NCBI GenBank assembly: GCA_038144675.1
Contig: JAYQOF010000006.1
Span: 41,622-105,621 of the forward strand
Source: Alphaproteobacteria bacterium
Lineage (GTDB): Bacteria > Pseudomonadota > Alphaproteobacteria > Puniceispirillales > UBA1172
Reading direction: 5' to 3'
DNA length: 64,000 nucleotides
Of the stretch, positions 1 to 64,000 are shown piece after piece. Position 1 is the first letter of the stretch; every line of letters starts with the position of its first letter. A model generated the notes under the pieces. That model searched no databases and was not told the origin of the DNA. It worked only from the letters and a program-made list of their open reading frames with translations. The position numbers and the translations under genes were made by a program.

Positions 1-807
1 ATATGAGGCTTGCTCTTGAAGCTGGAGATGAGCAGGATGCGCTTACCGCCGGACGTGAAGCATTAGCATTGAAGCCACGTTCTGCCAGCATCGCAAATGC
101 CCTTTTTGTGCTTGAGGCCAAGGCCGGAGAATGGGACAAGGCCGAGGCGGTATTGAACATCGCCCGTCATCATCAATAGCCTGCCCAGTCAGCGCAAAGC
201 AAAGAAGCCGAAGCCATAATTCTGCTAGAAAAATCCAAATCAGCAGAATCCGAAAAATCCAGGCAAAAATTACTTGGCCGTTCGATTAAAGCCAAGCCGG
301 ATTTTCTGCCAGCTATTCTGGCACAATCTGAAGTTTTTCTGGCTAATAAGCAGACCCGTAAAGCTACCGCATTACTGGAAAAACATTTCCTTCATGCGCC
401 ACACCCTGCTACAGCTGAACTTCTGATGCAGCACTGGTCAGGTAATCCTGCCGAAAACTGGCACGGCTGATTACCCTTACAGATAAGGGTGGCCAGCAGA
501 AAGAAGCATTGCTGGCAACAGCAAGGGTGGCTTTTGATCAGAAATTATGGGGGAAGCAAACCGGTTGGTGCATCTGATCCCTGATACAGATCGTGATGCG
601 CGCGTCTGGCAATTACTAGCTGATCTGGCTGAACATCACACCGACAATGATGACATGGATAAACTTGATAGCAGTCAGATGTTGCGACATGCTGCATTAG
701 CACCCAGACAACCGGAATGGCGGTGTCATAGTTGTCATAGCCAGCTATCAGACTGGCATGCCATATGCCCACAATGTCAGTCTTTTGCCAGTATAAAATG
801 GCAATAG
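1..807 (+). pseudogene. hemY: HemY-like TPR protein, C-terminal part (5' end outside window), disrupted
   Basis: The frame from nt 3 reads LALEAGDEQDALTAGREALALKPRSAS and hits an in-frame TAG at 177-179. It continues in the same frame (PAQSAQSKEAEAIILLEK...PDFLPAILAQSEVFL) to TGA 468-470. Coding then resumes in another frame (LWGEANRLVHLIPDTDRDARVW...CPQCQSFASIKWQ, ORF 547-807). Confidence 0.6.
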
Positions 808-817
808 CCAGATATCA

Positions 818-1027
818 TTACAGCCGTTGCTGGCCACCTAGCCATTGCAGGGTAGTATGGGATAATGCCATATGCGGAGGCGTGAAGTTTTCTTTTTCTA
901 CCAGATAGAAAAAGCCAAGCCGCATATGACCGGAAAAAGATCGTTCCGGTTTTCGCGGTTGATCAAACATCCGGGCATGTGATCGCGCCATCTGATTTTC
1001 GATAGCATGTAACGTTAGCATTGACAT
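818..1027 (-). CDS. hypothetical 69-aa ORF, no recognisable family
   Basis: ORF track only. It sits at the boundary between core and AT-rich DNA and could be a gene remnant. Confidence 0.2.
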   Translation of the reverse strand: MSMLTLHAIENQMARSHARMFDQPRKPERSFSGHMRLGFFYLVEKENFTPPHMALSHTTLQWLGGQQRL

Positions 1028-1157
1028 AAATATATAGACGACGCTTTTCCATAAAACTTTAACGCAAAAGATGGTTTTATTTTCCAGAAATGTCGGAAAT
1101 AAAGTCGCTTATGCTTCTTGTTCGGGGTTGGTTATGGTTGGAATATCAAAAAAGTCA

Positions 1158-1328
1158 TTAGGGGGTTACATTACCATTTGTGACTTCAACGATTTTAATC
1201 ATGGTTTTGCGTGTGGGTATGTATTTGCCAGCAGCATAGCGTGACACTAGCGATGGCGATACATCCACGTCTTGAGCAAATTGCTTCACCGTTATGTTTG
1301 ATTTTTTTAACCACTTGGATAATTTCAT
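1158..1328 (-). CDS. small Cro/YdaS-like helix-turn-helix DNA-binding protein (56 aa)
   Basis: My own translation, below the ORF-track cutoff: MKLSKWLKKSNITVKQFAQDVDVSPSLVSRYAAGKYIPTRKTMIKIVEVTNGNVTP. The HTH core pattern is typical. A palindrome lies just upstream. Confidence 0.6.
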   Translation of the reverse strand: MKLSKWLKKSNITVKQFAQDVDVSPSLVSRYAAGKYIPTRKTMIKIVEVTNGNVTP

Positions 1329-1336
1329 ATTTTATA

Positions 1337-1353
1337 TGTGCGATAAACGCACA
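1337..1353. promoter_or_regulatory. candidate operator palindrome TGTGCG-ATAAA-CGCACA
   Basis: Perfect 6-bp inverted repeat with a 5-nt spacer, 9-25 nt upstream of the 1158-1328 HTH gene start. A near-identical motif lies at 1798-1814. Confidence 0.4.
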
Positions 1354-1383
1354 ATTTTGTCAATGTAAAACAGGGCTTAATGC

Positions 1384-1766
1384 TTAATTTGACGCCATAA
1401 TATTTTTTATAATTTCTGTCATGGCCTCACTATCAGACTTGATATCGTAATTATATATTTCTGTTGCGATGATGCTAAGAATATCGGTGGAAGGTGTTAT
1501 TCCCCGTTTTGATAGCTCTGTTATCGCTGCATCAATGCAGCTGGCTAATTTTACAGGTTCAATGAGAGTTACGCCTTCAAAATCAGAACTGATTTCATCA
1601 AAAGGAACGTCAAATAATTCAGATAGTTTCTTAATGTGCCACCGTGGCACCTGATCTTTTTCCGTTTAAATATCGTGATATTCTTGACCGATCAACATTC
1701 AGGATATGAGCCAATTTTTGCTGACTCATCCCATTTAACTTCATGATCTTCCTGATTTTTTCCATT
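1384..1766 (-). pseudogene. XRE-family HTH regulator with extra C-terminal domain, frameshifted
   Basis: The N-terminus from ATG at 1766 reads MEKIRKIMKLNGMSQQKLAHILNVDRSRISRYLNGKR and then stops. The sequence continues in another frame as PRWHIKKLSELFDVPFDEI (ORF 1384-1650). The switch sits at an A/T run at 1657-1661. Confidence 0.6.
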
Positions 1767-1797
1767 TTACATTATACCCTCTGAACATCATAACAAA

Positions 1798-1814
1798 ATT
1801 GCGAATAACGCACA
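1798..1814. promoter_or_regulatory. second copy of operator-like motif (ATTGCG-AATAA-CGCACA)
   Basis: Lies 32-48 nt upstream of the XRE gene start. TTGCGAATAA at 1799-1808 is also repeated inverted as TTATTCGCAA at 1836-1845. Confidence 0.35.
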
Positions 1815-2025
1815 TAATATTCGACCTCTTATGAATTATTCGCAATGATCAGTAAGATTAGTTCATTATATTTTGATCTGATAAACCGGTTGTCCCGCAT
1901 GACAGGACAGATGCGCTTTAATTGAGCGAAGATAGAGATAATCAGTAGCGCGTAATGTTAGTAAAGTTATCCTAATAAGATAACGACCCTGATCACTTAT
2001 ATTTTAGTCCTCATGCCTATTTTAT

Positions 2026-2069
2026 TTGCAGGCTGGTGTTTGCCAAAACAATATGGCTCGGCATACAGG
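2026..2069 (+). repeat. orphan, diverged copy of the tRNA-Thr promoter region
   Basis: ttgcaggctggtgtttgccaaaacaatatggctcggcatacagg aligns with 4625-4669 ttgcaggctgatgcttgc-aaaacaatatgtcgacaggtatatagg. No intact tRNA follows. 2090-2125 resembles a tRNA 5' half only weakly. Confidence 0.45.
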
Positions 2070-2386
2070 AAATGAACGTCTTACTTTTGCTGGAAGGCAG
2101 AGATGTTGAAGAGGATATTGGGGAAACTGCGCATCAATGAAAAGAAATGAGCTGAGCTAATAGACTCCATCATTTTCATAACCAAAAGTTGCATATAAAA
2201 GAGATTAATATTCAATTTATGAAAGAAAACTAACCCAATAGTTTCATAACACAATCGCCATGCTTTTCTGTTCCTTTTATGAAACCTAGAGATGTACAAG
2301 TTTTGATATGCTTATTAATTGGATTTTCAGATGTTTCAAAATATGGCCCTGAGCAGTCACCATTCATATGGAAAACTAAATTATCA

Positions 2387-2924
2387 TCAGCTGCAAACTT
2401 CATGATTGGGGGTGTTGAGATTTATAGTCATTCCTCCTATTGGAAAAACTTTATTTGGTGTTTCTTCTAAAAATATTTCACCACCTTCTTCAACACCATC
2501 AAGAGAAAGTAAAAGAAATGTATCAAGTCCATTATTTACTTCACTAAAATCAAGCTTTGCGGAAATTATTGGCATATTGTCATTATTAAATACTTTCGAG
2601 TACACTTCTGAAAAAACTTCATCAGCCTCTTCATATCCCATCGGCCCTATGTCTCTATCATAGGTACAGGCTGCTGTTTCTCCTATTGGCTCATCCCCAT
2701 AAGTTAATATTGTTTCACCAGTATAGAAATTCAGTCTACAGCTTTGTGTGATGAAATAGACACCTTTTTTCAAACGTAAAGTCACAGGAATTATTATAGT
2801 CTTCGGAATGAGCATAGGATGAAACTAAAGCAAAGTACTGATTGTTAGTATATATTTGAGCTGGTTGATCATAATTCCCTCCTATGCACCTAAAACATGT
2901 CCTTATTGAAGGGAGAGCAATCAT
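2387..2924 (-). pseudogene. hypothetical protein, apparently frameshifted (ORFs 2736-2924 and 2387-2815)
   Basis: Two overlapping minus-strand ORFs in different frames. The first start overlaps the stop of the upstream gene (ATGA at 2921-2924). No family recognised. Confidence 0.35.
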
Positions 2925-3346
2925 ATTATTTTTAGTATCGCCAGCATACTTTCTAATGGTTGAGCATTATTTCTGATGACTTCCCCATGGACTATCAATT
3001 GAATGCTGTTTATCTGGTAGCATCCAATGACTTCTTCATAAGTTTCATTAGTATAATTTCCACTTTCATATTTATTAAAGATAAGCTCTATATTCTTCTG
3101 CATGACTGTATCAGCTTGAAGGACGTCTTGTGAGTCAGGCCTAGTGCCATATACATATCCAAAATAACCTGCATATGCGACTTCGAGTGCAACTTCCATA
3201 TTATCTGCATTGCCATCAAGGTCATAAGTAATGGCAGCATCACCAATAATCATCCCGGCACAGGCCGCAGTATCAGTTAATTCAGATGCTAATACATGAT
3301 TGATTGAAAATAGAAATGTAAACGCTATATAAAGTTTCTTCATCAT
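2921..3346 (-). CDS. secreted hypothetical protein (141 aa)
   Basis: N-terminal signal peptide MMKKLYIAFTFLFSINHVLA followed by an acidic Tyr/Gly-rich mature part. No family recognised. Confidence 0.5.
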   Translation of the reverse strand: MMKKLYIAFTFLFSINHVLASELTDTAACAGMIIGDAAITYDLDGNADNMEVALEVAYAGYFGYVYGTRPDSQDVLQADTVMQKNIELIFNKYESGNYTNETYEEVIGCYQINSIQLIVHGEVIRNNAQPLESMLAILKII

Positions 3347-3560
3347 ACCCTACTTTATCTAATTCTAATAATGTTAATTAAACTAGTATTCTAAGTAATT
3401 ATCAAGCCAGCTATGCCCGACGTTATGGCTATCGATGTTATCGTGCTTCTACCTATTGATTAAAATGATGATGATCATAGATAGTTTATATAAAACATAA
3501 TCTGTCTTCTAGATTTTCACATTTATATCTTTTCAGGATAGTTAAAAGAGCGACATCATC

Positions 3561-4320
3561 ATGAAAAAGTTTATTTATTACTCATTGTTACCAATAGCGT
3601 TACTCTCATGGCATTTATGAATTCTGCCTGGTCAGAAGGAAATAGTTCTCATTTACAATATAAAAGTGGGGATAAAGAATTTCTGGCCTATCTTGAACAT
3701 TCAACAGGCACATCTAATGGAACAGTTATCATTATTCATGACTGGGATGGTCTGACTGAGTATGAAAAAATGAGAGCGAAGATGCTATCTGACCTTGGAT
3801 ACGATGCTGTTGCCATTGATTTATTTGGCATTGATGCGACGTTGGAGAGCCGGGTTGATTATATGCGTGAAACGGGGGCTTTTATGGAAATCGTAATGAA
3901 TTTAGGGCAAGAATTCATGCTGCCTTAAAGGCTTCTAAAAACAGTGGAATTAATACAGACCAAATAATCATTTGTGGTTATTGTTTTGGTGGAGCAGCAA
4001 CTCTTGAAGCAGCAAGAAGCAGGCATTGAAACAGATGGTTTCGTAAGCTTCCATGGCGGTCTTGGCACCCCTGAAGGCCAAATTATAATCAAACTACTGC
4101 TCCAATATTACTTTTACATGGTTCAGCTGACCCCGTATCGGGAATGAATGATTTGGCCAGTCTCCTCAATCAACTCGAAGAAGCCAATATTCCTCATGAC
4201 GCTGAAATCTATGGAGGTGCCCGACATTCATTTACTGTATCAGGGTCAAGGGACTATGATGAACAGGCAGATGCAAAATCATGGGAAGCCCTTGTCAGGT
4301 TTCTCAATAGGCTGGGTTAG
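3561..4320 (+). pseudogene. dienelactone hydrolase family protein, multiple frameshifts
   Basis: Signal-like MKKFIYYSLLPIALLS, then TVIIIHDWDGLTEYEKMRAKMLSDLGYDAVAIDLFG (ORF 3608-3928). Other frames give IICGYCFGGAATLEAA and LLLHGSADPVSG...ARHSF...WEALVRFLNRLG, ending at TAG 4318-4320. Confidence 0.75.
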
Positions 4321-4638
4321 ATGTTAAACCAAAATGTGGAATAAAGACGTTTCTGTTCTATCAATTAAAATAGAACTCATTTAGCTTCGGGTCAGCTTTA
4401 CAGCCTGTGCTAATCAGCACCTAATTACCTTAGGGCAGGGATAGATAGCAGGATTTTCCTCTCCTTAGCTCACTGCTTATTCACCAGCCCAAATTCCATT
4501 TACTCTGGTACCAACATCATCACTATACATTGACCATATGTCAGTTCACATATCCCCACTTTCATTGCAAATTACTACTTTCTGGACACCATACTGAGCA
4601 TTAGCTGGTGTCCCATACTCATTGTTGCAGGCTGATGC

Positions 4639-4679: not shown

Positions 4680-4755
4680 GCTGCTGTAGCTCAGTTGGTA
4701 GAGTAACTGATTCGTAATCAGTAGGTCGTTGGTTCAATTCCAATCAGCAGCACCA
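4680..4755 (+). tRNA. tRNA-Thr (anticodon CGU)
   Basis: 76-nt cloverleaf. Acceptor stem gctgctg/cagcagc, anticodon stem actga/tcagt, loop ttCGTaa (anticodon 4713-4715), T-arm gttgg-ttcaatt-ccaat, encoded CCA. Confidence 0.93.
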
Positions 4756-4821
4756 TATTTTTCTATTTATTTATAGTTGCTTTACATATTTAAAATGCTT
4801 AATATTGATTTATGCTCACAT

Positions 4822-4860
4822 AAAGTTATGAGCGTATTGTAAGCAATAAAACGATATTAA
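4822..4860 (+). repeat. 39-bp direct repeat, copy 1 (candidate integrase arm-type sites)
   Basis: aaagttatgagcgtattgtaagcaataaaacgatattaa matches 12695-12733 at 34 of 39 positions. It contains reiterated GTGAGCA-like heptamers. Confidence 0.5.
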
Positions 4861-4949
4861 AGCGAATAATCAGGAGTAAATACACCTGTTATGGACTTGC
4901 TAGCTGGAAATACTTTCTTCTCTTGCTTTAATCCTGTCAGAAACGACCT

Positions 4950-5204
4950 TTAGAGAGGCGAGGAGTCCGCTTGACTCCTGAGCAAGCAATTTTGCTTTGG
5001 CTTGCCCCAACCTCTGTCTAACAGCGCCTGAGCGGCCGTTCCGCGCACATGCTCATCCTTGCCATGCCTCATGAGCTCAACAAGCGTATCAATAGCCTCG
5101 CTAGTGTAGGTTCTAGCAAGCTCAGCAACCTTATATTCATCCTTTGGTCGCCCAGAAGGGTTGCCAGAGTGTCCTGAGATGTATTGACCACGGGAATTAC
5201 GCAT
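4950..5204 (-). CDS. phage-associated small protein with GNPSGRPK motif (DUF5681-like)
   Basis: MRNSRGQYISGHSGNPSGRPKDEYKVAELARTY...LLDRGWGKP. The motif is recalled from phage and plasmid proteins. Confidence 0.5.
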   Translation of the reverse strand: MRNSRGQYISGHSGNPSGRPKDEYKVAELARTYTSEAIDTLVELMRHGKDEHVRGTAAQALLDRGWGKPKQNCLLRSQADSSPL

Positions 5205-5228
5205 TTACAGTTATCTCAAAATATTTAA

Positions 5229-5941
5229 TTATTTATAACATCTAAACCCAATATAGACCACGGCCATATCTCTTGGCTTAGTTGCTCCATAATCTGCCTT
5301 CATTTGTTCTGATCCATACCACCATGAACCACCCATCGTAGCTTGTTGTTGGTCTTCTGGAGAAATCATAGCCCATTCCCAAACATTAGCCCCCATATCA
5401 TAAAGACCATTAACACCTTGTTTGGTTGTGCCCACCCTTGCATGCCCATGGCCTCTCATAAGCATTGAAGAGAAGTCTGGTTTGCTATTTGGGTTACCTT
5501 TGGGATTGCCGCAAGCATTTAGACAATTAGCTCCAATAGGGGACGTCCCAGTAGGGTATGGATAAGTTATTCCTTTTTCATATTCTGGATGAAAGGGCGT
5601 TGCTCAGTATATGCAAAGTTTATCCATTCATAGCGTAAAGGAAGCCTTTTACCCTTCCATATACAATAGGCTTGTGCCTCATCATATGTGATATGAACAG
5701 CTGGCTCATCAGGATGACCTTTAATGCCGTAAGGTGATTTCCAGTTCCACTCAGGCTTAATGACCCAACCGTTTTCATATACCATGCCGCCTTGTTTCTC
5801 GGCTTTTGTTATATATCCAGTTTGGTCGACATATTCTTGGAAGTCAGAAATTGATGTTTCAGTTTGATCCATGGATGAAGTATTTGCTTGGGCAAATGAT
5901 GAAAATATACAAATACTGAAAATAATCACTCGATTATGCAT
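5229..5941 (-). pseudogene. secreted formylglycine-generating-enzyme (FGE/SUMF1, NirV-like) domain protein, one frameshift
   Basis: Signal peptide, then HITYDEAQAYCIWKGKRLPLRYEW (ORF 5567-5941) and GLYDMGANVWEW...GGSWWYG...IGFRC (ORF 5229-5465). The two frames join across an A/T run at 5574-5578. Confidence 0.75.
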
Positions 5942-6236
5942 TCTGCCTAGCTTCTATGATACCTAGAGTTGCTGTTGTAGAATCTACTACATAGGGTACA
6001 AGTGTAGATAGAGCCATTTTTGTCCAGCAAACGGACGTTAAAGCTCCTGCCATAATAGTATCACCATGATTTATAAAGGCTAAAATTGTTCCCACGATAA
6101 TAGCAACCTTAATTGCACGCTTCATTACCTTTGAACTAAAAAATATTGAACTAAAATTTGAAATAGTGGTCATATAAACACCCCATTTAAACGACATCAT
6201 GTTGTTTATCCTAGTATACTGTGTCTGAGAATTCAA
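5934..6236 (-). CDS. small membrane protein resembling NrtS (putative nitrate/nitrite transporter family)
   Basis: KRAIKVAIIVGTILAFINHGD motif plus transmembrane segments. Its 3' end overlaps the FGE gene start by 8 nt. Confidence 0.45.
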   Translation of the reverse strand: MNSQTQYTRINNMMSFKWGVYMTTISNFSSIFFSSKVMKRAIKVAIIVGTILAFINHGDTIMAGALTSVCWTKMALSTLVPYVVDSTTATLGIIEARQNA

Positions 6237-7045
6237 ATTAGATTACTATTAAATTAAGGCATTTAATCGCAACTTGTGCGCCTTGGCATCCCGCCTAAAG
6301 CACTAAAGCTCAGGAGCAGTTATGACTGACATTCGTTCCCTTTATACGTCTTAAACACCACTCAGAAGCCGCTGAGACCAGTTTAAAGCTTGTTCCTGAT
6401 AATGTGATCAAGCAGGAGCTCATCACCTATGTACAGGCTGATAACGGTGTTTCAATTGTTCAAAAGACTTACTCGTGACTTTGTTGGCGATAGCCATAAT
6501 GAAAATCTTGTTGTCAAAGTATTTCGAACTCAACCTGAAGCTTAGGGAGAGTAATATAATTCACAGCTAAACAGATTGATGATCTTGCTCGAGTAGTAGC
6601 TAGAGCTTGGAGATAAGTCGAGTGGATTATCCAAGCCTCATCCTGCGGAATATGCTGTTTATTAACCATCAGTTAGCCAAGAACTCTTAAGCATAGAGAT
6701 GGTGATGTGTCTAAAGTAACCATACGATGAGGATAGTTGGATGTTACGAGATGATAGAGGAAGTGTGGGGTGCTCACATTTGAAGCTCATTATCAAAGAT
6801 CTACAAACATAGGATAATCAGATCTATCTGCTAACCCCAGCTGTTTCTCTCACTATTATTAGTTTTTTACAATTTGTTACAAAACCCAACTAAAAAAATA
6901 ATTTAGCTCTTGGATATGTATCATAAAATCAACGTGATTACCTTCGTGTATAAATGAAAGCCTCATATTTTTGTTGGTGTATAAAAAATTATCAGGAAAC
7001 CTTTTCCCCAAACAAAGTTGTGCCTGAAGGAAAAAAATGACTTTT

Positions 7046-7240
7046 CTAAAAAAACTGTACCGAAATCAACGTGGATTCCAAATGGCTCATCGGAATTAAA
7101 TTGTTCAGGGTTATTCTATTTGGGTTAATCTCAACTTCCCCTGTTGAAATGCAACTGTAAAAACCCTCTTCTAGTTTTTCCCCACCCCAACTAGGCGTGG
7201 CAAGCATAACAAAGGCGAAAGTGGCTAAGATGATGCGCAT
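7046..7240 (-). CDS. small signal-peptide protein (64 aa)
   Basis: MRIILATFAFVMLATPSWG leader, paralogous to the leaders at 7355-7537 and 9192-9410. Confidence 0.4.
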   Translation of the reverse strand: MRIILATFAFVMLATPSWGGEKLEEGFYSCISTGEVEINPNRITLNNLIPMSHLESTLISVQFF

Positions 7241-7354
7241 TAGTAAAATTTATCAACCTCAGTATATTAGTTACTAATATTCTCCTAGCTATAAACGATT
7301 GTCGTTCACATATTGCTCTAGCTGGGTTTCCAATAGTTCTATAATAGTAAAAAT

Positions 7355-7537
7355 TTAGAGACTTCGATTATAATAAAACCATAGATGTTGTGTATCCCAA
7401 TCAGAATTGGTGTATGCTTTAATCAATGTTCCACGCTCCATAGCTTGAAAACATTCTTCTAAGCTTACTCTTATCCAAGCATAACTAGGCGTAGCGAAAA
7501 TAACAAAGGCTATAGCGGCTAGGATGATGCGATACAT
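7355..7537 (-). CDS. small signal-peptide protein (60 aa)
   Basis: MYRIILAAIAFVIFATPSYA leader, paralogous to the 7046-7240 leader. Confidence 0.4.
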   Translation of the reverse strand: MYRIILAAIAFVIFATPSYAWIRVSLEECFQAMERGTLIKAYTNSDWDTQHLWFYYNRSL

Positions 7538-7538
7538 A

Positions 7539-8353
7539 TCAGCAATCCTTGTATTCTTTCTTCACGCATTCTGATGTTAATTCCCGAGTTTTCTCTATTT
7601 GTGATGGGGTCATTAACGATCCATAAAATTCGCGATTATGGTAAGCTTGAGCATCTCCATTAGCAATAGCAAGGTTTATCCATAAGCCCATAAGAATAAT
7701 CTTTTTGAACCCCATAGCCATTAAAGTATAACGTCGCAAGGAAAGTTTGTGCTTTGGCGTGACCCTGTTCACCTGCTAGCAAAAACCATTTAAAAGATTT
7801 TTGAGAATATTCGCGGTCGTTATCAAAATAATACAAACCCAATTCAAACTGCGCATCTTGGTTGACCTTGTTTTGCACCAAGTGTGTACCATTCATAAGC
7901 GGTTTTAAATCCTTATTCACCCCACCAATACCAATCTGATACATAAAGCCAAGCAAGCTTGTGCCTCAGGGTGACCTTGTTTTGCAGCAAGTGTGAACCA
8001 TTTCACTGATTCATAATCTTCTTCTTGAAGAAATCTACTATAATAATAATATATTTCCCCAAGGTGATATTGGGCATCAGAGTTGCCTTGTTCAGCTAGT
8101 ATTTTAAATCCGTTAACCGCTAATTTAAAATAGTGCTTTGCAGTTTTATAATTTTCTTGATTGAAACTCCATCACCATCAAAATATAGACGACCAATATA
8201 ATATTGGGCTTATAAAGTCGGCTTGCTCAGCAGAGTTTCCATTCCTTTAAAGCAGTTGCGTAATCGCCATTATTATATGCTTCAAAAACCCTTATCCCAG
8301 TCGAAGCCCAACTATGTGAGATAAAAGGACAAGTGCAATGTAGCTAGGATGGT
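7539..8353 (-). pseudogene. Sel1-like repeat (SLR) protein with signal peptide, heavily disrupted
   Basis: Starts MGTILATLHLSF at 8353. Sel1 repeats are spread over three frames: AEQGNSDAQYHLGEIYYY, AAKQGHPEAQACLA, AQFELGLYYFDNDREYSQKSFKWFLLAGEQGHAKAQTFLATLYFNGYGVQKD. Confidence 0.7.
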
Positions 8354-8650
8354 GCCCATTATTTTTCTCCATACATCTGGGGTCAGTCTGCAATGTATTC
8401 CCATCAAAATCAATATGAGCCACGTTACCATTGTGCTTACGACAAAATACCTGCAGGCCCTATTTCAGTAAAGCCCACATCAACTAAAGAATAGCTCTGT
8501 AGTGATGCTGAGTCTGTCTGACCATTAACATCAGCCTCGCATTTTGAGCAGACAATCTGGTGCGCAATAGAGTTGAGAAAGAATAAGTACTGGTAGGTCT
8601 GAGGTCATTATCTTGGCGAACATTTGCCCATAGCTATTGAGCCACGACAA

Positions 8651-8932
8651 TTATTTCTCGATAAATGTCATCGTATTCTCAAATAACTGAACATCAAATT
8701 GGCTGGCAAAGACATAGTATTTACGGATTTCAGACCCAAAAAATGACCTCAATTCTATCGACCTTATACTCATCACAACTGAATTTTCCTGATGAGTCAT
8801 TTTTGACCCCACCTTGATAGCAAAGTATGCGCTGTCACTATGTACTCTTATGACTACAGCATATTTCCATTTATCTATCATTTCTTGGGAATAAGTATTT
8901 TTTCTGTGTCCCATTTTTTTGTACCAGGGCAA
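8651..8932 (-). CDS. hypothetical protein (93 aa)
   Basis: ORF track only. No family recognised. Confidence 0.3.
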   Translation of the reverse strand: MPWYKKMGHRKNTYSQEMIDKWKYAVVIRVHSDSAYFAIKVGSKMTHQENSVVMSIRSIELRSFFGSEIRKYYVFASQFDVQLFENTMTFIEK

Positions 8933-9191
8933 TTATACTCGGTAAAAGCAATATTAGTATTCAAAAAATAACAGTGTTATAAGAAGAAAAATTCCTCATT
9001 TGATTAATCCTTAAAGCAAATACCTGTTCTGATTGTTATCAATTTGCATAATTAGTTGAATACTGAATGTTCATATTTATGCTAGTTCCGCCTCCAAACG
9101 TGTAGTGTTTTCATTGATGCAATATAACCCTTTGCGGCAAACTCAACTATCCCTAATTTATCAATTAATTGAAGTTGGCTTTTAAGATTAT

Positions 9192-9410
9192 TCATCTGAT
9201 AGAATCGCCCCCAACAGTGTTTTCACGGATACTTATTAATAATCTTTCCTCTGTTTTTCCAGGTCCGAAGAAGCGTCCGTCATTTGCAACTTCCATATTA
9301 TCTACATTGCTACAAGTATTTTCTTCTGCAAAGCTAGGCGATGCAAACAGTAAAATAGGGAAAATAACCAATATGATCGCATTGCTATTTCCTATTGAAA
9401 ATAATTTAAT
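9192..9410 (-). pseudogene. third small signal-peptide protein, canonical start codon missing
   Basis: My own translation: IKLFSIGNSNAIILVIFPILLFASPSFAEENTCSNVDNMEVANDGRFFGPGKTEERLLISIRENTVGGDSIR. The position where Met is expected is ATT (9408-9410). The plus-strand ORF 9169-9414 is its antisense shadow. Confidence 0.3.
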
Positions 9411-10470: not shown

Positions 10471-10493
10471 CCTCACCTCCTTTACTCTTAGAC

Positions 10494-12679: not shown

Positions 12680-12694
12680 TTGATTTAAGGGGGT

Positions 12695-13731: not shown

Positions 13732-13740
13732 CTGGGCTGA

Positions 13741-49396: not shown

Positions 49397-49397
49397 A

Positions 49398-52453: not shown

Positions 52454-52465
52454 CAGTTTCCACCG

Positions 52466-53725: not shown

Positions 53726-53844
53726 GATAGTATTCCAGCGTCATTGATTATTATCCATTCTTTACTGTCATATAGAACGTGATTTGACAATAGTCGGATG
53801 ATGCGTGATAAAAATACATCCATAACTAGTTAATAGGATTTTGT

Positions 53845-55199: not shown

Positions 55200-56487
55200 A
55201 TCTGCTTACAGCAAATGATCAGCAAGGTCAGTATCCGCCCAGATTTTACGCGGCGACGACAAGTCACCTGCCCTTGCAAGCCACATAAAAGGGCGAACAT
55301 AAGGCCGATGTGGTGATTGTCGGGGCGGGATTTACCGGATTATCAGCGGCATTGCATCTGGCTGAACGGGGGTATGATGTCCATGTGCTGGATGCCCATC
55401 GTATCGGCTTTGGCGCATCTGGCCGCAATGGTGGTCAGGTTGGCAGTGGTCAGCGTGTAGAACAGGACTGGCTGGAAAAAGCCTATGGTATAGATACCGC
55501 ACGGCAATTATGGCATCTGGCCGAAGACGCCAAGGCGTTGGTCAGGGAACTGATCAAGACCCATCAGATTGATTGTCATTATCGCACCGGAATTGCTCAT
55601 AGCTGCTGGCGACAGGGGTGAGGTTGATGAAGATCACCGCTATGTCGAAAAGCTTCAGCGTGAATATGGATATGAACACATCGAAACCTTAGATCAGGAT
55701 GCCATGTATAGCATGATTGGATCACCAGTCTATCGGGGCGGCAGCATTGATCATGGTGCTGGTCATCTGCACCCGTTGGCATATGTGCTTGGGTTGGGGC
55801 AGGCAGCGTTGGCGGCTGGCGTGACGATATATGAAAACAGTATGGTCACGCGCATTATCGAGGGCAAAAAACCAAGTATTGTGACCGATCAGGGGGCAAT
55901 ACATGCCGATCATCTGATACTGGCCTGTAATGGATATCTGGGTAAATTAAATAAGCCAGTTGCCAGACGTGTCATGCCGATTAACAATTTTATTGTCACA
56001 ACGGAACCTCTAGGGGCGGAAGCACCAAGGGTGCTGGCAAAAGATATTGCCGTTGCTGATAGCAAGTTTGTTCTGAATTATTTCCGCCGATCCCATGATA
56101 ACCGGTTAATTTTTGGTGGTGGGGAAAATGTCAGCTATCGGTTTCCTTCTGATATCCGGGGCATGGTATCAAAACCGTTACATGCAGTATTCCCGCAACT
56201 GAAAGGGATTGCGCTTGATTATGCTTGGGGGTACCCTTGCCATTACGGTAAACCGGATGCCCTGCTTTATTCGGCTCAATGGTAATGTCATGTCAGCGTC
56301 AGGATATTCTGGTCATGGCGTTGCAATGGCAACACTGGCGGGCAAGCTTCTTGCGGAAGCAACAACAGGCGTATCAGAAGGGTTTGACTGTATGGCCGGT
56401 TTGCATGTGCCGCGGTTCCCCGGGGGGGGATTTGTTGCGCTGGCCATCGCTGGTGATTGGCATGAACTGGTATATGTTGCGCGATAA
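55196..56487 (+). pseudogene. FAD-dependent oxidoreductase (gamma-glutamylputrescine oxidase PuuB-like), nonsense codon plus frameshifts
   Basis: The ATG overlaps the upstream stop (ATGA). In-frame TAA at 55286-55288 precedes DVVIVGAGFTGLSAALHLAERGYDVHVLDAHRIGFGASGRNGGQ. Spacing from FYAA to DV matches E. coli PuuB as I recall it. Later pieces are 55569-56285 and 56209-56487. Confidence 0.75.
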
Positions 56488-56496
56488 ACTAGGCTT

Positions 56497-57119
56497 CTAG
56501 CTGAAAAACAACATTAACAGCTTGGCTGATATGGCCAGCATGATCATCCCGATGATAATATCCAGCACACGCCAGTGACGACGGCTTGTCATATAGCGGG
56601 AACAATATCTGGCACCATATCCAAGTGATGCAAAAAATACAAAACCAGCCGTCATAGCACCAAGGGCAAAATGCCATTTGCCGATCACGTCATAGGCTAT
56701 GGAAAAACTGCCAATCAGGATCACGGTATCCAGATAAACATGGGGGTTACTTATAGGTCAGTATCGCCAGTGTTGTGAGAGATTTTTGCCATGACATTCG
56801 CGTAGGTGCAGAGGTTATATCTTCCAAGATCATAAACACCGCGCCATGCAGATATGAAATGCATGATTGCGTAACTGAATAGCCATGATGAAGCAACAAT
56901 AGCCAGAATATACTGATAATCTGCCATGATGGCCTGAACCGCGACAGCCATGCCGCCAACGCCAGCCGCTATCAATAAGGCATCCGAACAGGCGCAAAAT
57001 AGGACAGATAACGTTACATGTTGCTGCCGTAATCCTTGTTTGAGCACAAAGCTATTTTGTGCCCCGATGGCAAGAATAAGAGAAAACCCCAGCCCAAACC
57101 CGTTTATGAAAGCAAGCAT
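56497..57119 (-). pseudogene. argO: LysE/ArgO-family arginine/lysine exporter, frameshifted
   Basis: MLAFINGFGLGFSLILAIGAQNSFVLKQGLRQQHV...CACSDALLIAAGVGG (within ORF 56751-57179). C-terminal half PHVYLDTVILIGS...IIGMIMLAISAKL is in another frame (56497-56724). Confidence 0.7.
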
Positions 57120-57236
57120 GATATTTTTTCCGGTTAAAGGAGTCAAAGCCAGCACGTCATTGATTTTAATGGATATCAAGAATGTTGACCATTGCTATTT
57201 GCTAGCAGAATTATTACTTGCGTCTAGTATCTTGCA

Positions 57237-57261
57237 AAAAAGTTAGTATGTGCCTAACTTT
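57237..57261. promoter_or_regulatory. perfect palindrome in the argO/sitA divergent intergenic region (candidate metalloregulator operator)
   Basis: aaaagttag-tatgtgc-ctaactttt: a 9-bp inverted repeat about 40 nt upstream of the sitA start. Confidence 0.35.
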
Positions 57262-57299
57262 TCAGTTATTGGCAAAACCTGAAGCATAAATATGATCCC

Positions 57300-58230
57300 A
57301 TGTTGTCTTATCATATCTTAAAGCGATTTTTTATTCTGGCCATCATGCTATCCGGCCTTTTTATGGCTGGTCTGGCTTGAGCTGAACGGATTAAGGTTGT
57401 CACCAGCTTTACCATTCTGGCTGATATGACCCGCCAAGTGGCTGGGACTTATGCTGATGTGGTATCCATTCACCCGTCCGGGGGGCGGAAATACATGGCT
57501 ATCAGCCAACTCCGCAAGACTTGGTTCAGGCCATTGATGCTGATCTTATCATCTATAATGGTTTTAATCTGGAACAATGGATGGATCAGTTTCTGCAACA
57601 GCTGGGCGATATTCCAACGGTCCGAATTAGTGCAGGTATAGCCCCAATTGCCATTGATGCTGGCGTTTATGAAGGCAAAGCCAATCCACATGCATGGATG
57701 GGACTGGAAAACGCATATCTTTATATTGATAATATTGCTGCTGCGCTATCAGATATTGATCCGCAAAATAAGACGCAATACATGACTAATGCCAGCCAAT
57801 ATAAGGCCAGATTATCAGCACGGGTTTTGCCACTGAAAGCAGAAATTGCAGCCTTTGCCAGAACATGCCCGATGGTTAGTCACCTGTGAAGGAGCATTTA
57901 GTTATCTGGCCTGCCGATCTGGGGATGCGGGAATTATATTTATGGCCTATTAATGCTGATAGTCAGGCAACCCCGCAACAGGTTCGCCGGGTGATTGATC
58001 AGATACGCATACATGATATTCCGGTTATATTTTGTGAAAGCACGGTCAATACCGCGCCAGCAGAACAGGTTGCCAGAGAAACAGGCATACATTACGGCGG
58101 GGTTTTATATGTTGATAGCCTAAGTGCTGAAGATGGCCCTGTCCCCCATTACGAAGATTTAATTGCGCTTAATGTTAACAACATCAAACAGGCGATTGAT
58201 GCGGCATTAGCCAGAACACAGAAACCATAA
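57300..58230 (+). pseudogene. sitA: Mn/Fe ABC transporter substrate-binding protein (SitA/MntC family), nonsense codon plus frameshifts
   Basis: MLSYHILKRFFILAIMLSGLFMAGLA, then in-frame TGA at 57378-57380, then AERIKVVTSFTILADMTRQVAG. Further pieces: AIDADLIIYNGFNLEQW...NPHAWM (57521-57889) and DIPVIFCESTV (57886-58230). Confidence 0.8.
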
Positions 58231-58234
58231 AACC

Positions 58235-59108
58235 GTGATTAAAAATCTGACTGAAAATCAAAATGAAGGTATAAGGCGGATAACGTTTCGGTGATCTATC
58301 CGAACGGGCATAAAGCGTTATGGGATGCCAGTTTTACCTTGCCTCAAGGGACGGTTTGCGGACTGGTTGGTATTAATGGTGCTGGAAAATCAACCTTGTT
58401 CAAAGCCATGATGGGGATTCACGAAACTATCCCGCGGCAGCATAAGCATTATGTGCAGAACTGTATCTGAGGCATTAAAGGAAAATCTGATTTCCTATGT
58501 GCCACAAACAGAACAGGTGGACTGGACTTTTCCGGTTCTGGTCGAAGATGTTGTGATGATGGGGCGGTTTGGCCATATGGGTTTTTGCGGATACCCAGAA
58601 AGGCTGATCATGAAGCCGTTGAGCAGGCATTACAACGGGTCAATATGCAGGATTATCGCTATCGCCAGATAGGGGAGTTGTCAGGAGGACAGCGCAAGCG
58701 TGTTTTTCTGGCAAGAGCCATCGCCCAGAACGGGCATGTTATTCTGCTTGATGAACCATTTACCGGTGTTGATGTCCATACCGAAGAACAGATTATTAAA
58801 TTGATGCTGGATTTGCGTGCAGAAGGCCGGATTATCCTTGTATCAACACATAATCTGGGATCAGTGCCAGAGTTTTGTGACCGCACCATTCTGATCAAGG
58901 GTACAATATTAAGTTATGGGGAAACCGAAACCACATTTACTCAGGAAAACCTGCAACAGGCTTTTTGGCGGGGTCTTGCGATATTTCACACTTAGCGGCA
59001 AAACCTGCATGAAGACAGCGATAGCCTGTTACCATTCTGACCGATGATGAACGTCCGCTGGTGCAGTATGATGGTAAAACCAAAACCAAGGAAGGGAAGT
59101 CCAAGTGA
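58235..59108 (+). pseudogene. sitB: Mn/Fe ABC transporter ATP-binding protein, frameshifted
   Basis: GLVGINGAGKSTLFKAMMG (my own translation), [25 protein letters not shown] (58585-58995). The tail LTDDERPLVQYDG ends at TGA 59106-59108, overlapping the sitC GTG start. Confidence 0.8.
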
Positions 59109-59959
59109 TTTTGCTTGAACCCTTTGCCTATGACTATATGAAAAATGCCATGCTGATGGCCGGACTTGTCGGTGGGATGTGTGCCTTTCTGTCTGCCTAT
59201 CTGATGTTGAAAGGATGGTCATTAATCGGCGATGCCTTATCCCATTCGGTTGTTCCGGGGTGGCAGGTGCTTATATGCTGGGCTTGCCCTTTGCGCTTGG
59301 GGCCTTTCTGGCGGGCGGACTGGCGGCCTTGGCAATGCTTTTCTGTCGGAACGGTCAGGGTTAAAAATTGATACGATTATAGGGATTATTTTCACCTCAT
59401 TCTTTGGCCTTGGTCTTTTCCTGATATCGTTATGGCCGATGTCGGTATCTATCAAGACGATTGTCTTTGGCAATATCCTGTCGGTTACTCCTGAGGATAC
59501 GGTTCAGCTTCTGTTGATCTCATTAGTGGCTATTTCGATCTTGATCTTTAGATGGAAAGATCTGATGGTGACCTTTTTTGACGAAGAGCATGCGCGAAGT
59601 GTGGGCTTAATCAACGCGACTAAAATTGCTGTTTTTTTATGTTTTATCGGCGTCGGTTGTTGCCGCAATGAAAACGGTCGGCGCCTTTCTGGTGATAGCC
59701 ATGGTTATCACGCCGGGGGCAACCGCTTATCTGATTTGTGACCGGTTTCCACGGTTGATAATGCTATCGGTTTCATCGGGGTGGTATCCAGTGTTCTGGG
59801 CACTTATATCAGCTATTTCTGGACGGAGCCACTGGCGGGGTGATTGTTACCCTTCAACTGGTTATGTTTCTGGTCACCTTTATAGCCGCCCCAAAATATG
59901 GCCTGATTGCCAGCCGCCGCAAGGCACGTGCTGAGATGATCTATCAAGGTTCTGCCTGA
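59105..59959 (+). pseudogene. sitC: Mn/Fe ABC transporter permease, frameshifted
   Basis: LLEPFAYDYMKNAMLMAGLVGGMCAFLSAYLMLKGWSLIGDALSHSVVPG, then further pieces in other frames (59232-59741, 59626-59934). Confidence 0.75.
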
Positions 59960-60802
59960 TGGAATGGGCTGATATCATATTACCATTCCAGTTCGGCTTT
60001 ATGCAGAAAGCGTTTCTGATTGGTATTATCGTGGCAGTGCCAACAGCTTTACTATCTTGTTTTCTGGTCATGAAAGGCTGGGCGCTGATGGGTGATGCTG
60101 TCAGCCATGCTATTCTGCCCGGCATTGTTCTGGCCTATATTTTTGGTTTCCCGTTGCTGATTCGGGGCATTTCTGGCCGGCATGTTATGTGCGTTGATGA
60201 CCGGTTTCCTGACGACAAATAGCCGCGTCAAACAGGATACCATTATGGGTGTTGTTTTTTCGGGAATGTTCGGGGTTGGCATTGTTCTTTATGTATCAAT
60301 AAAAACGGATCTGCATCTGGATCATATCTTGTTTGGACATCTGCTAGGTGTAAATAACAATGATCTGTTTCTGACAGCAATGATTGCTATTCCCATTAGT
60401 CTTATTCTGATCCTGAAATGGAAAGACCTGATGCTTCATAGTTTTGATGCGATGCAGGCGAAAGCAAGCGGGCTTTCAGTTGGAATATTGCATTATGGGC
60501 TTTTGACCATGATCTCACTGGGGATTGTAGCAACGCTATCGGCAACAGGTCTGATTCTGGCTATCGGATTACTGATTGCTCCCGGTGCCATTGCCTATCT
60601 GATAACCCGACGTTTTGCTTATATGCTTTGGATATCCGTGATGATATCTGTGTCTGCCATGGTGATCGGCATATATCTGAGCTTTTTTATCAATAGTGCG
60701 CCAGCCCCGACCGTGATTCTTATTCTGACGTTCTGGTTTATCATGGCGTTCTGTTTCCGTATGGCGCGTATCAAGATGCTGACACGCCAGATGGAACACT
60801 GA
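59959..60802 (+). pseudogene. sitD: Mn/Fe ABC transporter permease, one frameshift
   Basis: LPFQFGFMQKAFLIGIIVAVPTALLSCFLVMKGWALMGDAVSHAILPG (59959-60222), then MTGFLTTNSRVKQDTIMGVVFSG (60182-60802). Confidence 0.75.
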
Positions 60803-61018
60803 AAATTCGATTTGGCTGATAAAAAACCTCTTTACAAGCATGATGCCCAAGGAGTAATTTCTGCCCGAATGATGGCGTCATTCATTGGCGATTTTCGCCA
60901 ACCTTTGTTTCTGATTTGATCAACACATCCTGTACGCCGGGATGATCATCTCGGGAGTAGGGGAATCTATGCTCCTGAGAACATGTTTGCTTTAAACTGT
61001 GTTTCAAAGGAGCTAAAA

Positions 61019-62227
61019 ATGAAAAGACCTCAATTCTATCGTTTTCATAACGGAACCAAAGACGCATTACCCTTTTCTCAAAATGAATATGCACGCCGCC
61101 TGACTGCGATCAGGGCGCGTATGGCAGCAAGAGAAATTGATGCGATTATCCTGACTTCAATGCATAATGTAGCCTATTATACAGGCTTTCTTTATTGTTC
61201 ATTTGGTCGGCCATATGCCGCCGTGATTACCCCTGATGCCTGTACGACCGTATCGGCGGCTATTGATGCCGGTCAACCCTGGCGGCGTTCCATTGATGAT
61301 AATGTGACCTATACAGACTGGCAGCGCGGGAATTACTTTCGGGCGATAAATGATCTGCTTCCTGCCGCCAAACATATCGGCATAGAAGATGATCATGTAA
61401 CATTACAAACCCGTCAGGCATTTGCCAGTTTCATGCCTGATGTAAGATGGACTGATATTGCTGCTGATACCATGACCGAACGGATGATCAAATCCGAAGA
61501 AGAGATCACACTAATAAAAGCAGGTGCGGCAGTAGCGGATATTGGTGGCTATGCTATCCATGCCGCCATAAAGGAAAATGTGCGGGAAATTGATGTTGCC
61601 ATGGCTGGGCGTGATGCCATGGAAGCGGCGATTGCCGAACGTTTTCCTGATAGCGAATTGCGGGATACATGGGTTTGGTTCCAGTCTGGCATCAATACCG
61701 ATGGTGCCCATAATCCGGTCACTTGTCGACAGCTTGGGGCAGGTGATCTGTTATCGCTTAACACCTTTCCAATGATTTCCGGCTATTATACAGCACTGGA
61801 ACGCACAATGTTTCTGGGTGAACCGGATGCCGATACCCGAAAGCGTGGCAAGCTAATCTGGATGTTCATGAATACGGGCTTAGCCTGATCAAGCCGGGGC
61901 CACTTGTAGCGGTATTACAGCGGAATTGAATAAACTTTTTGAAGATTTGGGTTATCTTGATCGCGTCGCACCTTTGGTTATGGGCATTCCTTTGGGGTGT
62001 TATCCCATTATTATGGGCGTGAAGCCGGATTGGAATTGCGTGAAGATATTGATACGGTTCTGCAACCGGGCATGGTTGTATCCATGGAACCGATGATCAC
62101 TATCGGCGATGATGAACCGGGACGCGGTGGTTACAGGGAACATGATATTCTGGTTGTCACCGAACATGGTGCCGAAAATATCACGAAATACCCTTATGGC
62201 ATGGAGCAAAATGTTATATCGATATGA
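61019..62227 (+). pseudogene. creatinase (creatine amidinohydrolase, M24 fold), frameshifted near the C-terminal third
   Basis: YYTGFLYCSFGRPYAAVIT...GQPWRRSI...VTYTDWQRGNYF...WVWFQSGINTDGAHNPVT...PMISGYYTALERTMFL, then LSHYYGREAGLELREDIDTVLQPGMVVSMEPMI...GGYREHDILVVTEHGAENITKYPYG (61997-62227). Strong remembered similarity to Pseudomonas putida creatinase. Confidence 0.85.
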
Positions 62228-62382
62228 TTGTTAGATCATTTGAGATGTCAATTTGACCGGAAGTTATCATTATGTTAAAATCAGAAGCGTTTAAACTGGA
62301 CAAATTGTATAGATAAGAGTTAAATTAAACTCAATAAATGATTCAATTATGGATCAATATAATTATATGGCAGGAGATAAAT

Positions 62383-63440
62383 ATGAGAAATTTGCCACTT
62401 ATCGTAATCGTTCTCGTTATTGGTTTTGGTATAGGCTACTTCCTTAACGGATCAAACGAACAAGCTGTTGAGCAAGAAGCAACGTATGGAAGTGTCAACC
62501 ACTTCTACGCTAGAAGCAGTGAAAGAAAAGGCTATGTCCAGTGTGGCGTGAGTCAGGGGCTTCCGGATTTTCAAACGCAGATGACAATGGTAACTGGACA
62601 GGGATTGATGTTGATCTTTGCCGTGGTGTTGCTGCTGCTGTCTTTGGTGATGCTGATAAAGTCCGGTTTACACCATTATCTGCAAAGCAGCGTTTTACCG
62701 CGTTATCTTCAGGTGAAATTGATATTCTTTCACGGAATACAACATGGACGATGACACGTGATACCCAGCTCGGTCTTAACTTTGCCGGCGTCAATTATTA
62801 TGATGGTCAGGGCATGATGGTTCCTGCGTCACTGGGTGTTACATCAGCGACTGAACTTGATGGTGCTAATATCTGCACAAATACGGGTACAACAACAGAA
62901 CTCAACATTACAGATTATTTCCGTGCAAATAACATGAGCTTTGAACTTGTTGCCTTTGAAAAAGCAGATGAGGTTGTTGCCGCTTATGATGCTGGCCGTT
63001 GTGACGTCTACACAACTGACCGTTCCGGTCTGGCTGCACAGCGGACGAAGCTGACTAACCCAGATGCACATGTTGTGCTTCCTGAAATCATTTCAAAAGA
63101 GCCACTTGGCCCGGTTGTTCGTCAGGGTGACGATGAGTGGTTTAACATTGTTCGGTGGTCACTCAATGCCATGATCAACGCTGAAGAACTCGGCGTGACA
63201 CAAGCCAATGTTGATAGCATGATGGGATCAGATAATCCCGCTATCAAGCGTCTTCTGGGTGAAGAAGGCAATTTTGGTGAAAAGCTTGGTCTTAGCAATG
63301 ACTGGGCAGCAAACATCATCAAAGCTGTCGGTAATTATGGTGAGTCTTATGACGCACATGTTACTCCACTTGGTCTTGCCCGTGGTGCTAACGCGTTATG
63401 GAACAATGGTGGCATTCTCTATGCTGCTCCAATTCGCTAA
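62383..63440 (+). pseudogene. aapJ: general L-amino-acid ABC transporter substrate-binding protein (AapJ-like), frameshifted
   Basis: Start is ATG 62383 after caggag. STTSTLEAVKEKGYVQCGVSQGLPGFSNADDNGNWTGIDVDLCRGVAAAVFGD is reconstructed across frames. The bulk is ORF 62541-63440. Confidence 0.8.
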
Positions 63441-63454
63441 TACATAACATGATT

Positions 63455-63487
63455 GAAGCATCCATTTCTTTCGTAAATGGGTGCTTC
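63455..63487 (+). terminator. intercistronic hairpin after aapJ
   Basis: gaagcatccattt-ctttcgt-aaatgggtgcttc: a 13-bp stem with one G-T pair. No T-run follows. Confidence 0.4.
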
Positions 63488-63543
63488 CATTCCCTTGCAG
63501 ATTTCAATGATAATTAGAATAATCTGATAAAGGGCGTTAAAAA

Positions 63544-64000
63544 ATGCAATTATCTGATTTATCAAGTTTATGGAATGATGTTCGTGTCCGGCGTATTGCC
63601 ATACAGGTGATTCTGCTGGCACTTAGTTGTATTCTGTTTCTGGTGGTTGATCAGCAACACTTCTCAAAATCTGGATAAATTGAATAAATCCATCGGATTT
63701 GATTTTCTTTCACAAAATGCCGGTTTCCAAATTGCACCAACCCTAGGCACATGGCTTTTTTCCTATGAGGTTGGGCAGTCGACATACTGGGACGTTTATT
63801 TAATTGGCATTATCAATACGCTTCTGGTGGCTGTTCTGGGGATAATGGCGGCAACAATCATCGGCTTTCTGATCGGAATTATGCGATTATCGCATAACGT
63901 GATCTTTAGAAGCTTTGCAACAGTCTATATTGAACTCTTACGGAATATTCCCCTGCTATTGCAGTTGTTTTTCTGGTATTTCACGGTTTTGCGCGCATTA
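63544..64000 (+). pseudogene. aapQ: general L-amino-acid ABC transporter permease (AapQ-like), 5' part, frameshifted; continues beyond window
   Basis: MQLSDLSSLWNDVRVRRIAIQVILLAL, then a stop. It continues in another frame: NLDKLNKSIGFDFLSQNAGFQIAPT...LLRNIPLLLQLFFWYF. Confidence 0.7.

Follow-up and report, generated by a model that had tools for sequence, protein, structure and literature searches.

Gene content of the window and extent of gene disruption

We analysed a 64,000-nucleotide stretch (the window) of contig JAYQOF010000006.1, from the alphaproteobacterial assembly GCA_038144675.1, in which most genes are interrupted by frameshifts and a few also by in-frame stop codons. A preliminary description of the window, made from its sequence, had attributed these interruptions either to early-stage genome decay or to an error-rich assembly. 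The closest relatives of its intact argG gene (41004-42236) are metagenome-assembled genomes (MAGs) of Candidatus Puniceispirillales (SAR116), at up to 98% amino-acid identity, and the gene content is SAR116-like, with dmdA, acuI, dddP, betA, metY, gabD, a TRAP transporter, sitABCD, a creatinase-type peptidase and polar amino-acid ABC systems. GC content is 46-52% over most of the window and 35-42% in its first 12 kb.

Three independent assemblies of the same species, at ~96% nucleotide identity, together span 17.7-52 kb of the window: L001 (from the NCBI MAG ME_XS_2109_bin_56; 96.5%, window 31011-51990), L082 (an ENA scaffold; 96.1-96.5%, window 19800-36416) and L086 (a Logan contig; 95.8%, window 17702-21705). 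More distant references are L087, L088 and L089 (~80% identity, window 1-1085 and 12937-29572) and the JGI contig L090 (80.5% nucleotide identity, window 51993-63993). When we sought a closer relative for 52-64 kb, the best finds were an 88% amino-acid match on a 2.5-kb contig and the 80% nucleotide match of the JGI contig. Genes in all of these loci are long, compact and full-length. The window is collinear with L001, L082, L088 and L090, its gene order is that of all its relatives, and the closest relatives are marine or aquatic metagenome assemblies wherever a title or contig name gives the source.

We aligned 48 reference proteins from these loci to the window by frameshift-aware dynamic programming of protein against DNA. 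This replaced the counting of tblastn high-scoring segment pairs, which misses closely spaced frameshifts, and spurious antisense reference open reading frames (ORFs) were removed by hand. L082 gene calls are full length for all genes of region 1 below except adhC (252 aa), which we aligned instead to the 369-aa gene of L087. The genes and their frameshifts, grouped into five regions, are as follows.

3-20788, region 0 (island excluded): 19 frameshifts in 8.3 kb of coding sequence, 2.3 per kb
3-804, hemY: 2 frameshifts and a TAG
12972-13728, FKBP-rhodanese: 5 frameshifts
13835-14629, ABC ATPase (polar amino-acid system): 2 frameshifts
14654-15383, binding protein (polar amino-acid ABC): 1 frameshift
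15479-16351, permease (polar amino-acid ABC): 3 frameshifts
16359-17194, permease (polar amino-acid ABC): 1 frameshift
17215-18350, AstE-like: 1 frameshift
18407-19573, aminotransferase: 2 frameshifts (compensating pair)
19583-20788, chromate transporter: 2 frameshifts

20806-32091, region 1: 26 frameshifts in 10.9 kb, 2.4 per kb
20806-22491, betA: 2 frameshifts
22505-23328, esterase (fghA): 3 frameshifts
23371-24474, adhC: 2 frameshifts
24666-25332, LysE: 4 frameshifts
25429-26415, acuI: 0 frameshifts
26439-27601, dmdA: 1 frameshift
27601-28894, metY: 2 frameshifts
28900-29708, alpha/beta hydrolase: 5 frameshifts
29718-32091, HAD/ECH: 7 frameshifts

32123-45589, region 2, the cleanest: 15 frameshifts in 12.4 kb, 1.2 per kb
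32123-33764, AMP-ligase: 1 frameshift
33763-34524, DUF1289: 2 frameshifts
34520-35595, hypothetical: 3 frameshifts
35536-36145, SCO1: 1 frameshift
36173-37318, FAD monooxygenase: 0 frameshifts
37381-38121, BI-1/YccA: 0 frameshifts
38203-39350, rlmN: 3 frameshifts
39341-39877, hypothetical, 179 aa: 0 frameshifts
40036-40574, TrmH-like methyltransferase: 3 frameshifts
40580-40885, phhB: 0 frameshifts
41004-42233, argG: 0 frameshifts
42765-43366, sodB: 1 frameshift
43521-44967, gabD: 1 frameshift
45017-45589, hpt: 0 frameshifts

45619-51508, minus strand, region 3: 4.2 frameshifts per kb
45619-46990, minus strand, dddP: 6 frameshifts
47040-49396, minus strand, TRAP fused DctM permease: 9 frameshifts and a TAA
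49401-50351, minus strand, DctQ-like, 318 aa: 7 frameshifts
50434-51508, minus strand, dctP: 2 frameshifts

51990-63994, region 4 (L090 reference, 80% nucleotide identity): 45 frameshifts in 11.3 kb, 4.0 per kb
51990-52450, pncA: 3 frameshifts
52469-53725, ferredoxin reductase: 8 frameshifts
53805-55196, glnA-like: 6 frameshifts
55196-56497, puuB-like FAD oxidoreductase: 3 frameshifts and a TAA
56500-57119, argO: 2 frameshifts
57264-58227, sitA (ZnuA family): 4 frameshifts and a TGA
58235-59102, sitB: 6 frameshifts
59105-59956, sitC: 5 frameshifts
59959-60799, sitD: 1 frameshift
61019-62224, creatinase: 3 frameshifts
62368-63437, aapJ-like: 3 frameshifts
63544-63994, aapQ-like: 1 frameshift

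The alignment yielded 129 frameshifts (64 of -1, 50 of +1, eight of -2 and seven of +2) and five in-frame stops over 48.6 kb of coding sequence, or 2.65 frameshifts per kb. Interruptions affect 41 of the 48 genes, and an uninterrupted piece reaches at least 95% of the reference length in only eight. This bears out the earlier observation that most genes have to be rebuilt from several ORF pieces, and the six-frame ORF list itself shows the fragmentation. Once their frames are repaired, the proteins are 94-100% identical to same-species references. Frameshifts are distributed uniformly along gene length (Kolmogorov-Smirnov p = 0.97), and seven genes are intact, against 5.1 expected from gene length alone.

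The preliminary description had called the TRAP locus shattered and the block 40577-42236 free of disruption. Both statements stand, with 18 frameshifts and one stop in 4.4 kb of the TRAP locus, and with phhB and argG intact in the block. A second block described as undisrupted, 35567-38121, does stay open, but SCO1 carries indels at both of its extreme ends (35550 and 36135). Among the five genes that the preliminary description listed as intact, argG, phhB and BI-1 are so, whereas SCO1 and hpt carry terminal indels. The indels at 35550, 36135 and 45587 (the last in hpt) lie within the first or last few codons and shift the start or lengthen the C-terminus; the hpt product has 206 aa in the window and 191 aa in L001. 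The aminotransferase ORF at 18407-19576 (plus strand) is kept open by two shifts 20 nt apart, +1 near 19448 and -1 near 19468, which cancel out and leave a 389-aa product with a short garbled stretch. An intact-looking ORF in the window may thus still contain errors.

The indels are private to the window

The window differs from L001 by 70 indels and 643 mismatches in 21 kb. Inside the 19 genes that are intact in L001, which include dddP and all three TRAP genes, lie 53 of these 70 indels, and 50 of the 53 shift the reading frame. Over the three-way overlap at 31011-36416 (5.4 kb), 10 of 11 indels seen against L001 recur at the same place against L082, and they are therefore private to the window. 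The same-species assemblies served as controls for one another: L001 and L082 are 95.9% identical, with 222 mismatches and a single, intergenic indel in 5.4 kb; between L082 and L086 there are 86 mismatches and again one intergenic indel in 1.9 kb. Natural divergence of this degree thus amounts to ~1 indel per 150 substitutions, with none in genes, versus one per 9 in the window, which carries ~3 indels per kb against the same-species assemblies. Intergenic DNA has more indels per kb (17 in 1.7 kb) than coding DNA, but genuine divergence of intergenic sequence, above all at 51.5-52 kb, confounds this difference. All genes in the three same-species assemblies are intact.

Substitutions on the window branch

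Unpolarised coding mismatches between the window and L001 number 87, 55 and 402 at codon positions 1, 2 and 3; 398 are synonymous, 146 are non-synonymous and none is a single-step nonsense change. Polarised with outgroups over 21 kb, the window branch carries 124 synonymous and 61 non-synonymous substitutions (codon positions 35/23/127) and the L001 branch 117 and 49. A replicate with L082 (19.8-36.4 kb) gave 126 and 45 on the window branch and 151 and 58 on the L082 branch, and in the three-way overlap 43 of 54 window-private substitutions fall at codon position 3. Purifying selection persists on the window branch, and the genes would therefore have been functional until the present. As judged from these alignments, the window lineage does not exceed its sisters in length, nor is its constraint weaker, yet all of the frameshifts fall on it.

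In Vibrio mutation-accumulation experiments, the ratio of indels to substitutions was 0.27 and 0.16 in wild-type lines and 0.09 and 0.27 in mutS-deficient lines (PMC5854121). At those ratios, 50 neutral frameshifts in 19.3 kb need ~0.010-0.013 neutral substitutions per site, a load that equals ~140-190 extra non-synonymous changes on the window branch. Observed excesses in the two comparisons are +12 and -13 non-synonymous changes. For the frameshifts to be true mutations, at least ~3 indels per neutral substitution would be needed, an order of magnitude beyond the measured spectra (PMC5854121).

The window contains no insertion sequence (IS)-like or other repeats of at least 40 nt except the tRNA attachment repeat described below. 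Polarised GC-to-AT versus AT-to-GC changes number 103:78 and 105:55 on the window branch and 86:56 and 89:90 on its sisters. The shift towards AT is higher than in the sister in one comparison and lower in the other, with no consistent extra AT pressure; unpolarised, the two kinds of change number 261 vs 271.

Indel spectrum and uneven distribution

Between 17.7 and 52 kb we counted 104 indels (60 deletions and 44 insertions), of which 86 affect a single base (50 deletions and 36 insertions). Longer homopolymers are more likely to carry an indel, with a probability per run of 0.14%, 0.19%, 1.0% and 2.3% at 1, 2, 3 and 4 nt, 10% at 5 nt and 19% at 6 nt or more, and runs of at least 4 nt show 23 deletions versus two insertions. 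About one-third of the single-base events, 17 deletions and 14 insertions, lie outside any repeat. Methylation motifs near the indels (GANTC, GATC, CCWGG and others) gave no convincing signal with a crude handling of the flanks and were set aside, including CCWGG (four matches, p = 0.01 uncorrected for eight motifs).

The preliminary description had held that damage is not uniform and that transport and catabolic functions are hit hardest. The unevenness is real if modest, since a uniform Poisson model is rejected with overdispersion (deviance 79.2, 47 degrees of freedom, p = 0.002), but it is regional and not functional. Fitting five contiguous blocks, picked post hoc, accounts for the overdispersion (likelihood-ratio p = 9e-5; residual p = 0.095). 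Frameshifts are denser where homopolymers are denser (rho = 0.43, p = 0.002), and their density shows no correlation with local GC (rho = -0.07). A Poisson test across functional classes, proposed earlier as a check, gives 1.66 frameshifts per kb for housekeeping genes versus 2.96 for transport and catabolism (p = 0.013 taken alone), a nominal difference of which nothing is left once region is fitted (p = 0.48). Because class adds nothing beyond region, the function-like pattern of damage reads as a regional technical effect, and local depth or polishing success is likely to lie behind it. Housekeeping genes are broken too (rlmN, sodB, hemY, metY and the TrmH-like methyltransferase), in region 0 they are if anything harder hit, and the number of intact genes is close to that expected from length, so the claim about transport and catabolism does not hold.

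In-frame stop codons

Five in-frame stops interrupt otherwise homologous sequence.

177-179, plus strand: TAG in hemY; the reference residue is Ser
12594-12596, minus strand: TAG in the island integrase, before DDKLKGF; read-through matches Arm-DNA-bind_3 from three residues past the stop
47531-47533, minus strand: TAA in the TRAP fused permease
55286-55288, plus strand: TAA in the puuB-like FAD oxidoreductase; the references have Leu
57378-57380, plus strand: TGA in sitA, right after the signal peptide; the references have Ser

Four of these (hemY, the integrase, puuB-like and sitA) had been named before, and each is indeed in frame with homologous sequence on both flanks. The fifth, in the TRAP permease, is new to this analysis. 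There, four adjacent mismatches turn GAGGGT of L001 into GAATAA in the window, and such a cluster suggests that the consensus failed locally and not that a point mutation occurred. At the reference-aligned stops the replaced residues are Ser, Leu, Gly and Ser, and TAG, TAA and TGA are all used. The five stops counted in the 48-gene alignment are a slightly different set: they exclude the integrase, which has no reference, and include one apparent stop in the glnA-like gene (53827). We rejected the latter as an interruption, since it falls within the first eight residues of a reference ORF taken from stop to start, and the true start probably lies further downstream.

A tRNA-Thr island and other features of the window

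The low-GC beginning of the window contains an island bounded by a tRNA gene and its partial copy.

4680-4755, plus strand: tRNA-Thr(CGU), left island boundary
4758-12843: low-GC island of ~8.1 kb with fragmented ORFs; GC 35-42%, no reference
12844-12906, plus strand: displaced native 3' part of tRNA-Thr, an attR-like direct repeat of 63 nt, 89% identical to 4695-4757

The right-hand tRNA copy scores as a weak tRNA by Rfam and is not called by ARAGORN. A fragmented P4-type integrase lies at ~11000-12650 on the minus strand, with matches to Arm-DNA-bind_3 and Phage_integrase. Pfam searches with ORF fragments from the island and from 2.4-3.9 kb gave partial matches only (FGE-sulfatase, Sel1, HEAT/DUF5681 and a weak DLH). 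L088 and L089 carry hemY, tRNA-Thr and FKBP without the island, and L087 has a different integrase at the same tRNA-Thr, which therefore looks like an integration hot spot. Another 3.5 kb of ~35% GC (1086-4634), between a small gene next to hemY and the tRNA-Thr, is absent from L088 and L089 as well; its sole family match is the weak DLH. Fragmentation of the island and of 1086-4634 fits the window-wide error rate.

The L001 contig stops at window position 51990 and L090 starts at 51993, so that two independent short-read assemblies have one break point, inside pncA. To its left the closest relative is 96.5% identical, and to its right only ~80%. Assembly graphs are probably split at this point by the boundary of a strain-variable segment or by a recombination breakpoint. 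A variable intergenic segment lies upstream of adhC and LysE, where window 24285-24545 (260 nt) and L082 4489-4590 (100 nt) do not align. Chance probably explains the 41-nt inverted pair at 19089-19129 and 56692-56732, which shows 85% complementarity over a distance of 37.5 kb.

Probable assembly error and its alternatives

From the comparison of assembled sequences we conclude, with a probability of about 0.9, that the interruptions are consensus errors of an error-rich, indel-dominated, nanopore-like assembly of a normal free-living SAR116 genome. The fragmentation itself is confirmed, and the frameshifts and stops are no new biological feature. Of the two origins offered in the preliminary description, the error-rich assembly is thus the one supported, with indels private to the window and a window branch selected as strongly as its sisters. 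We infer that the source was most likely a low-coverage or unpolished nanopore-type long-read assembly. The underlying organism would have ordinary, intact and compact genes, including the neighbourhood for dimethylsulfoniopropionate (DMSP) and amine catabolism. The base caller or consensus would under-call homopolymers and elsewhere drop or add single bases, at ~3 indels per kb, and the few in-frame stops would come from rarer substitution errors (~0.7 per kb or fewer). Error density would track homopolymer density and presumably local read depth, and in doing so would mimic uneven damage. Homopolymer indels that break gene calls are a recognised residual error of nanopore consensus sequences (PMC9262707), and spurious pseudogenes driven by platform and coverage are widespread in public assemblies (Cooley & Wright 2024, PMC11017572).

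Several points weigh against this reading. The five in-frame stops slightly exceed the ~1.5-2.5 expected at ~0.7 or fewer substitution errors per kb, and the frameshift counts are modestly overdispersed. Replication slippage also yields homopolymer-biased indels, so the spectrum alone is not decisive. Lesion sites were judged from assembled sequences alone. At 1-17.7 and 52-64 kb the references are only ~80% identical and the polarity of change is inferred; lesions there were assigned to the window because the references are intact and the window is not. The island (~4.8-12.8 kb) and 1086-4634 have no reference, and lesions there could stem from error or from decay. A few lesions could be real, for example in the island integrase, and so could some at the TRAP locus, which has the highest frameshift density; its fused permease carries 15 window-private non-synonymous changes versus five in L001, a non-significant excess.

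These last observations would suit a mixed case, in which most lesions are errors and a minority are real pseudogenes (the island integrase and its cargo, and possibly the TRAP transporter). The integrase combines many frame breaks with a stop in an island of low GC, and remnants of integrated elements often decay. We nevertheless think a mixed case unlikely, though it deserves to be kept in mind: by our own estimate the TRAP excess has a p of roughly 0.1-0.2, the substitutions there are still mostly at the third codon position, the adjoining 52-64 kb is equally dense in frameshifts across unrelated genes, and ORF fragments in the island have the sizes that ~3 indels per kb gives in AT-rich DNA. 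Genuine early-stage decay, with frameshifts and nonsense codons accumulating genome-wide under recently relaxed selection (host restriction or a bottleneck), accommodates the 41 of 48 interrupted genes, the surplus of deletions over insertions (60 vs 44), the five in-frame stops and damage that is uneven and strikes the TRAP transporter locus heavily. It is very improbable all the same. The window branch has the same non-synonymous to synonymous ratio as its sisters, and the ~140-190 extra non-synonymous changes expected with 50 neutral frameshifts are missing. IS or repeat expansion and consistent AT drift are absent and gene order is kept as in the relatives; rlmN, sodB and hemY are struck at the same rate as neighbouring genes; and relatives with a stated source come from marine or aquatic metagenomes. 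The earlier proposal that a move to host restriction had relaxed selection fails on the same grounds.

A variant in which the sequence is accurate and a free-living-type SAR116 strain stands at the onset of massive inactivation, through an unprecedented indel-dominated mutation process (at least ~3 indels per neutral substitution) with substitutions lagging behind, is marginally harder to credit than decay under relaxed selection. Still less credible is a mismatch-repair-deficient hypermutator with a recent burst of real homopolymer indels. The steep climb of indel probability with homopolymer length does resemble that of mutS-deficient mutation-accumulation lines, but those lines show ~4-11 base substitutions per indel (PMC5854121) and the window branch has no substitution excess; in addition, about one-third of its single-base indels lie outside repeats and its runs of at least 4 nt suffer nearly exclusively deletions (23 vs 2). 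Expression of the genes in spite of their interruptions, by stop-codon reassignment or programmed frameshifting, comes last and has next to no probability: residues flanking the in-frame stops still align, yet TAG, TAA and TGA all occur with no consistent match of stop to residue, shifts of +1, -1, +2 and -2 are spread over 129 unrelated sites, and same-species relatives encode the same proteins without recoding.

Consequences for use of the assembly

If the interruptions are consensus errors, gene calls, pseudogene counts, metabolic reconstructions and claims of genome reduction drawn from this contig will be wrong unless it is polished or frame-corrected, and the whole assembly is probably affected likewise. 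The approach used here provides a read-free test of error against decay. Substitutions and indels are polarised against two close relatives, and the test asks whether the lineage that bears the frameshifts also bears the non-synonymous load of real decay. Were the lesions real, they would reveal a planktonic SAR116 lineage in wholesale pseudogenisation, a remarkable case, but the evidence speaks strongly against this.

Comparison with known systems

Early degradation is known from recently host-restricted bacteria such as Mycobacterium leprae, Sodalis glossinidius and Shigella. Like those genomes, the window has many genes broken by frameshifts or stops while gene order and homology are kept. 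In host-restricted genomes one also expects relaxed selection, IS proliferation or rearrangement, and lesions shared across assemblies, and those of these features that can be tested are absent from the window.

The closer likeness is to Oxford Nanopore assemblies and MAGs of the R9 era or of low coverage (Sereika et al. 2022, PMC9262707; Homopolish, PMC8011154; Kastor, PMC12007338). In both, indels make up most errors and become steeply more frequent in longer homopolymers, with contraction of long runs. Close homologues show the proteins to be truncated (an IDEEL-type signal, with 8 of 48 full length in the window) and serve to restore the frames. Two features differ: ~300 indels per 100 kb seems high to us for a polished nanopore assembly, and about one-third of the single-base events fall outside homopolymers, a sign of low depth or absent polishing. 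As with the spurious pseudogenes of public assemblies (PMC11017572), the pseudogene count is far above that of near-identical genomes, and internal stops alongside frameshifts mark a poor consensus. That study is statistical and covers many genomes, whereas the case made here is built on branch-specific substitution patterns within 64 kb.

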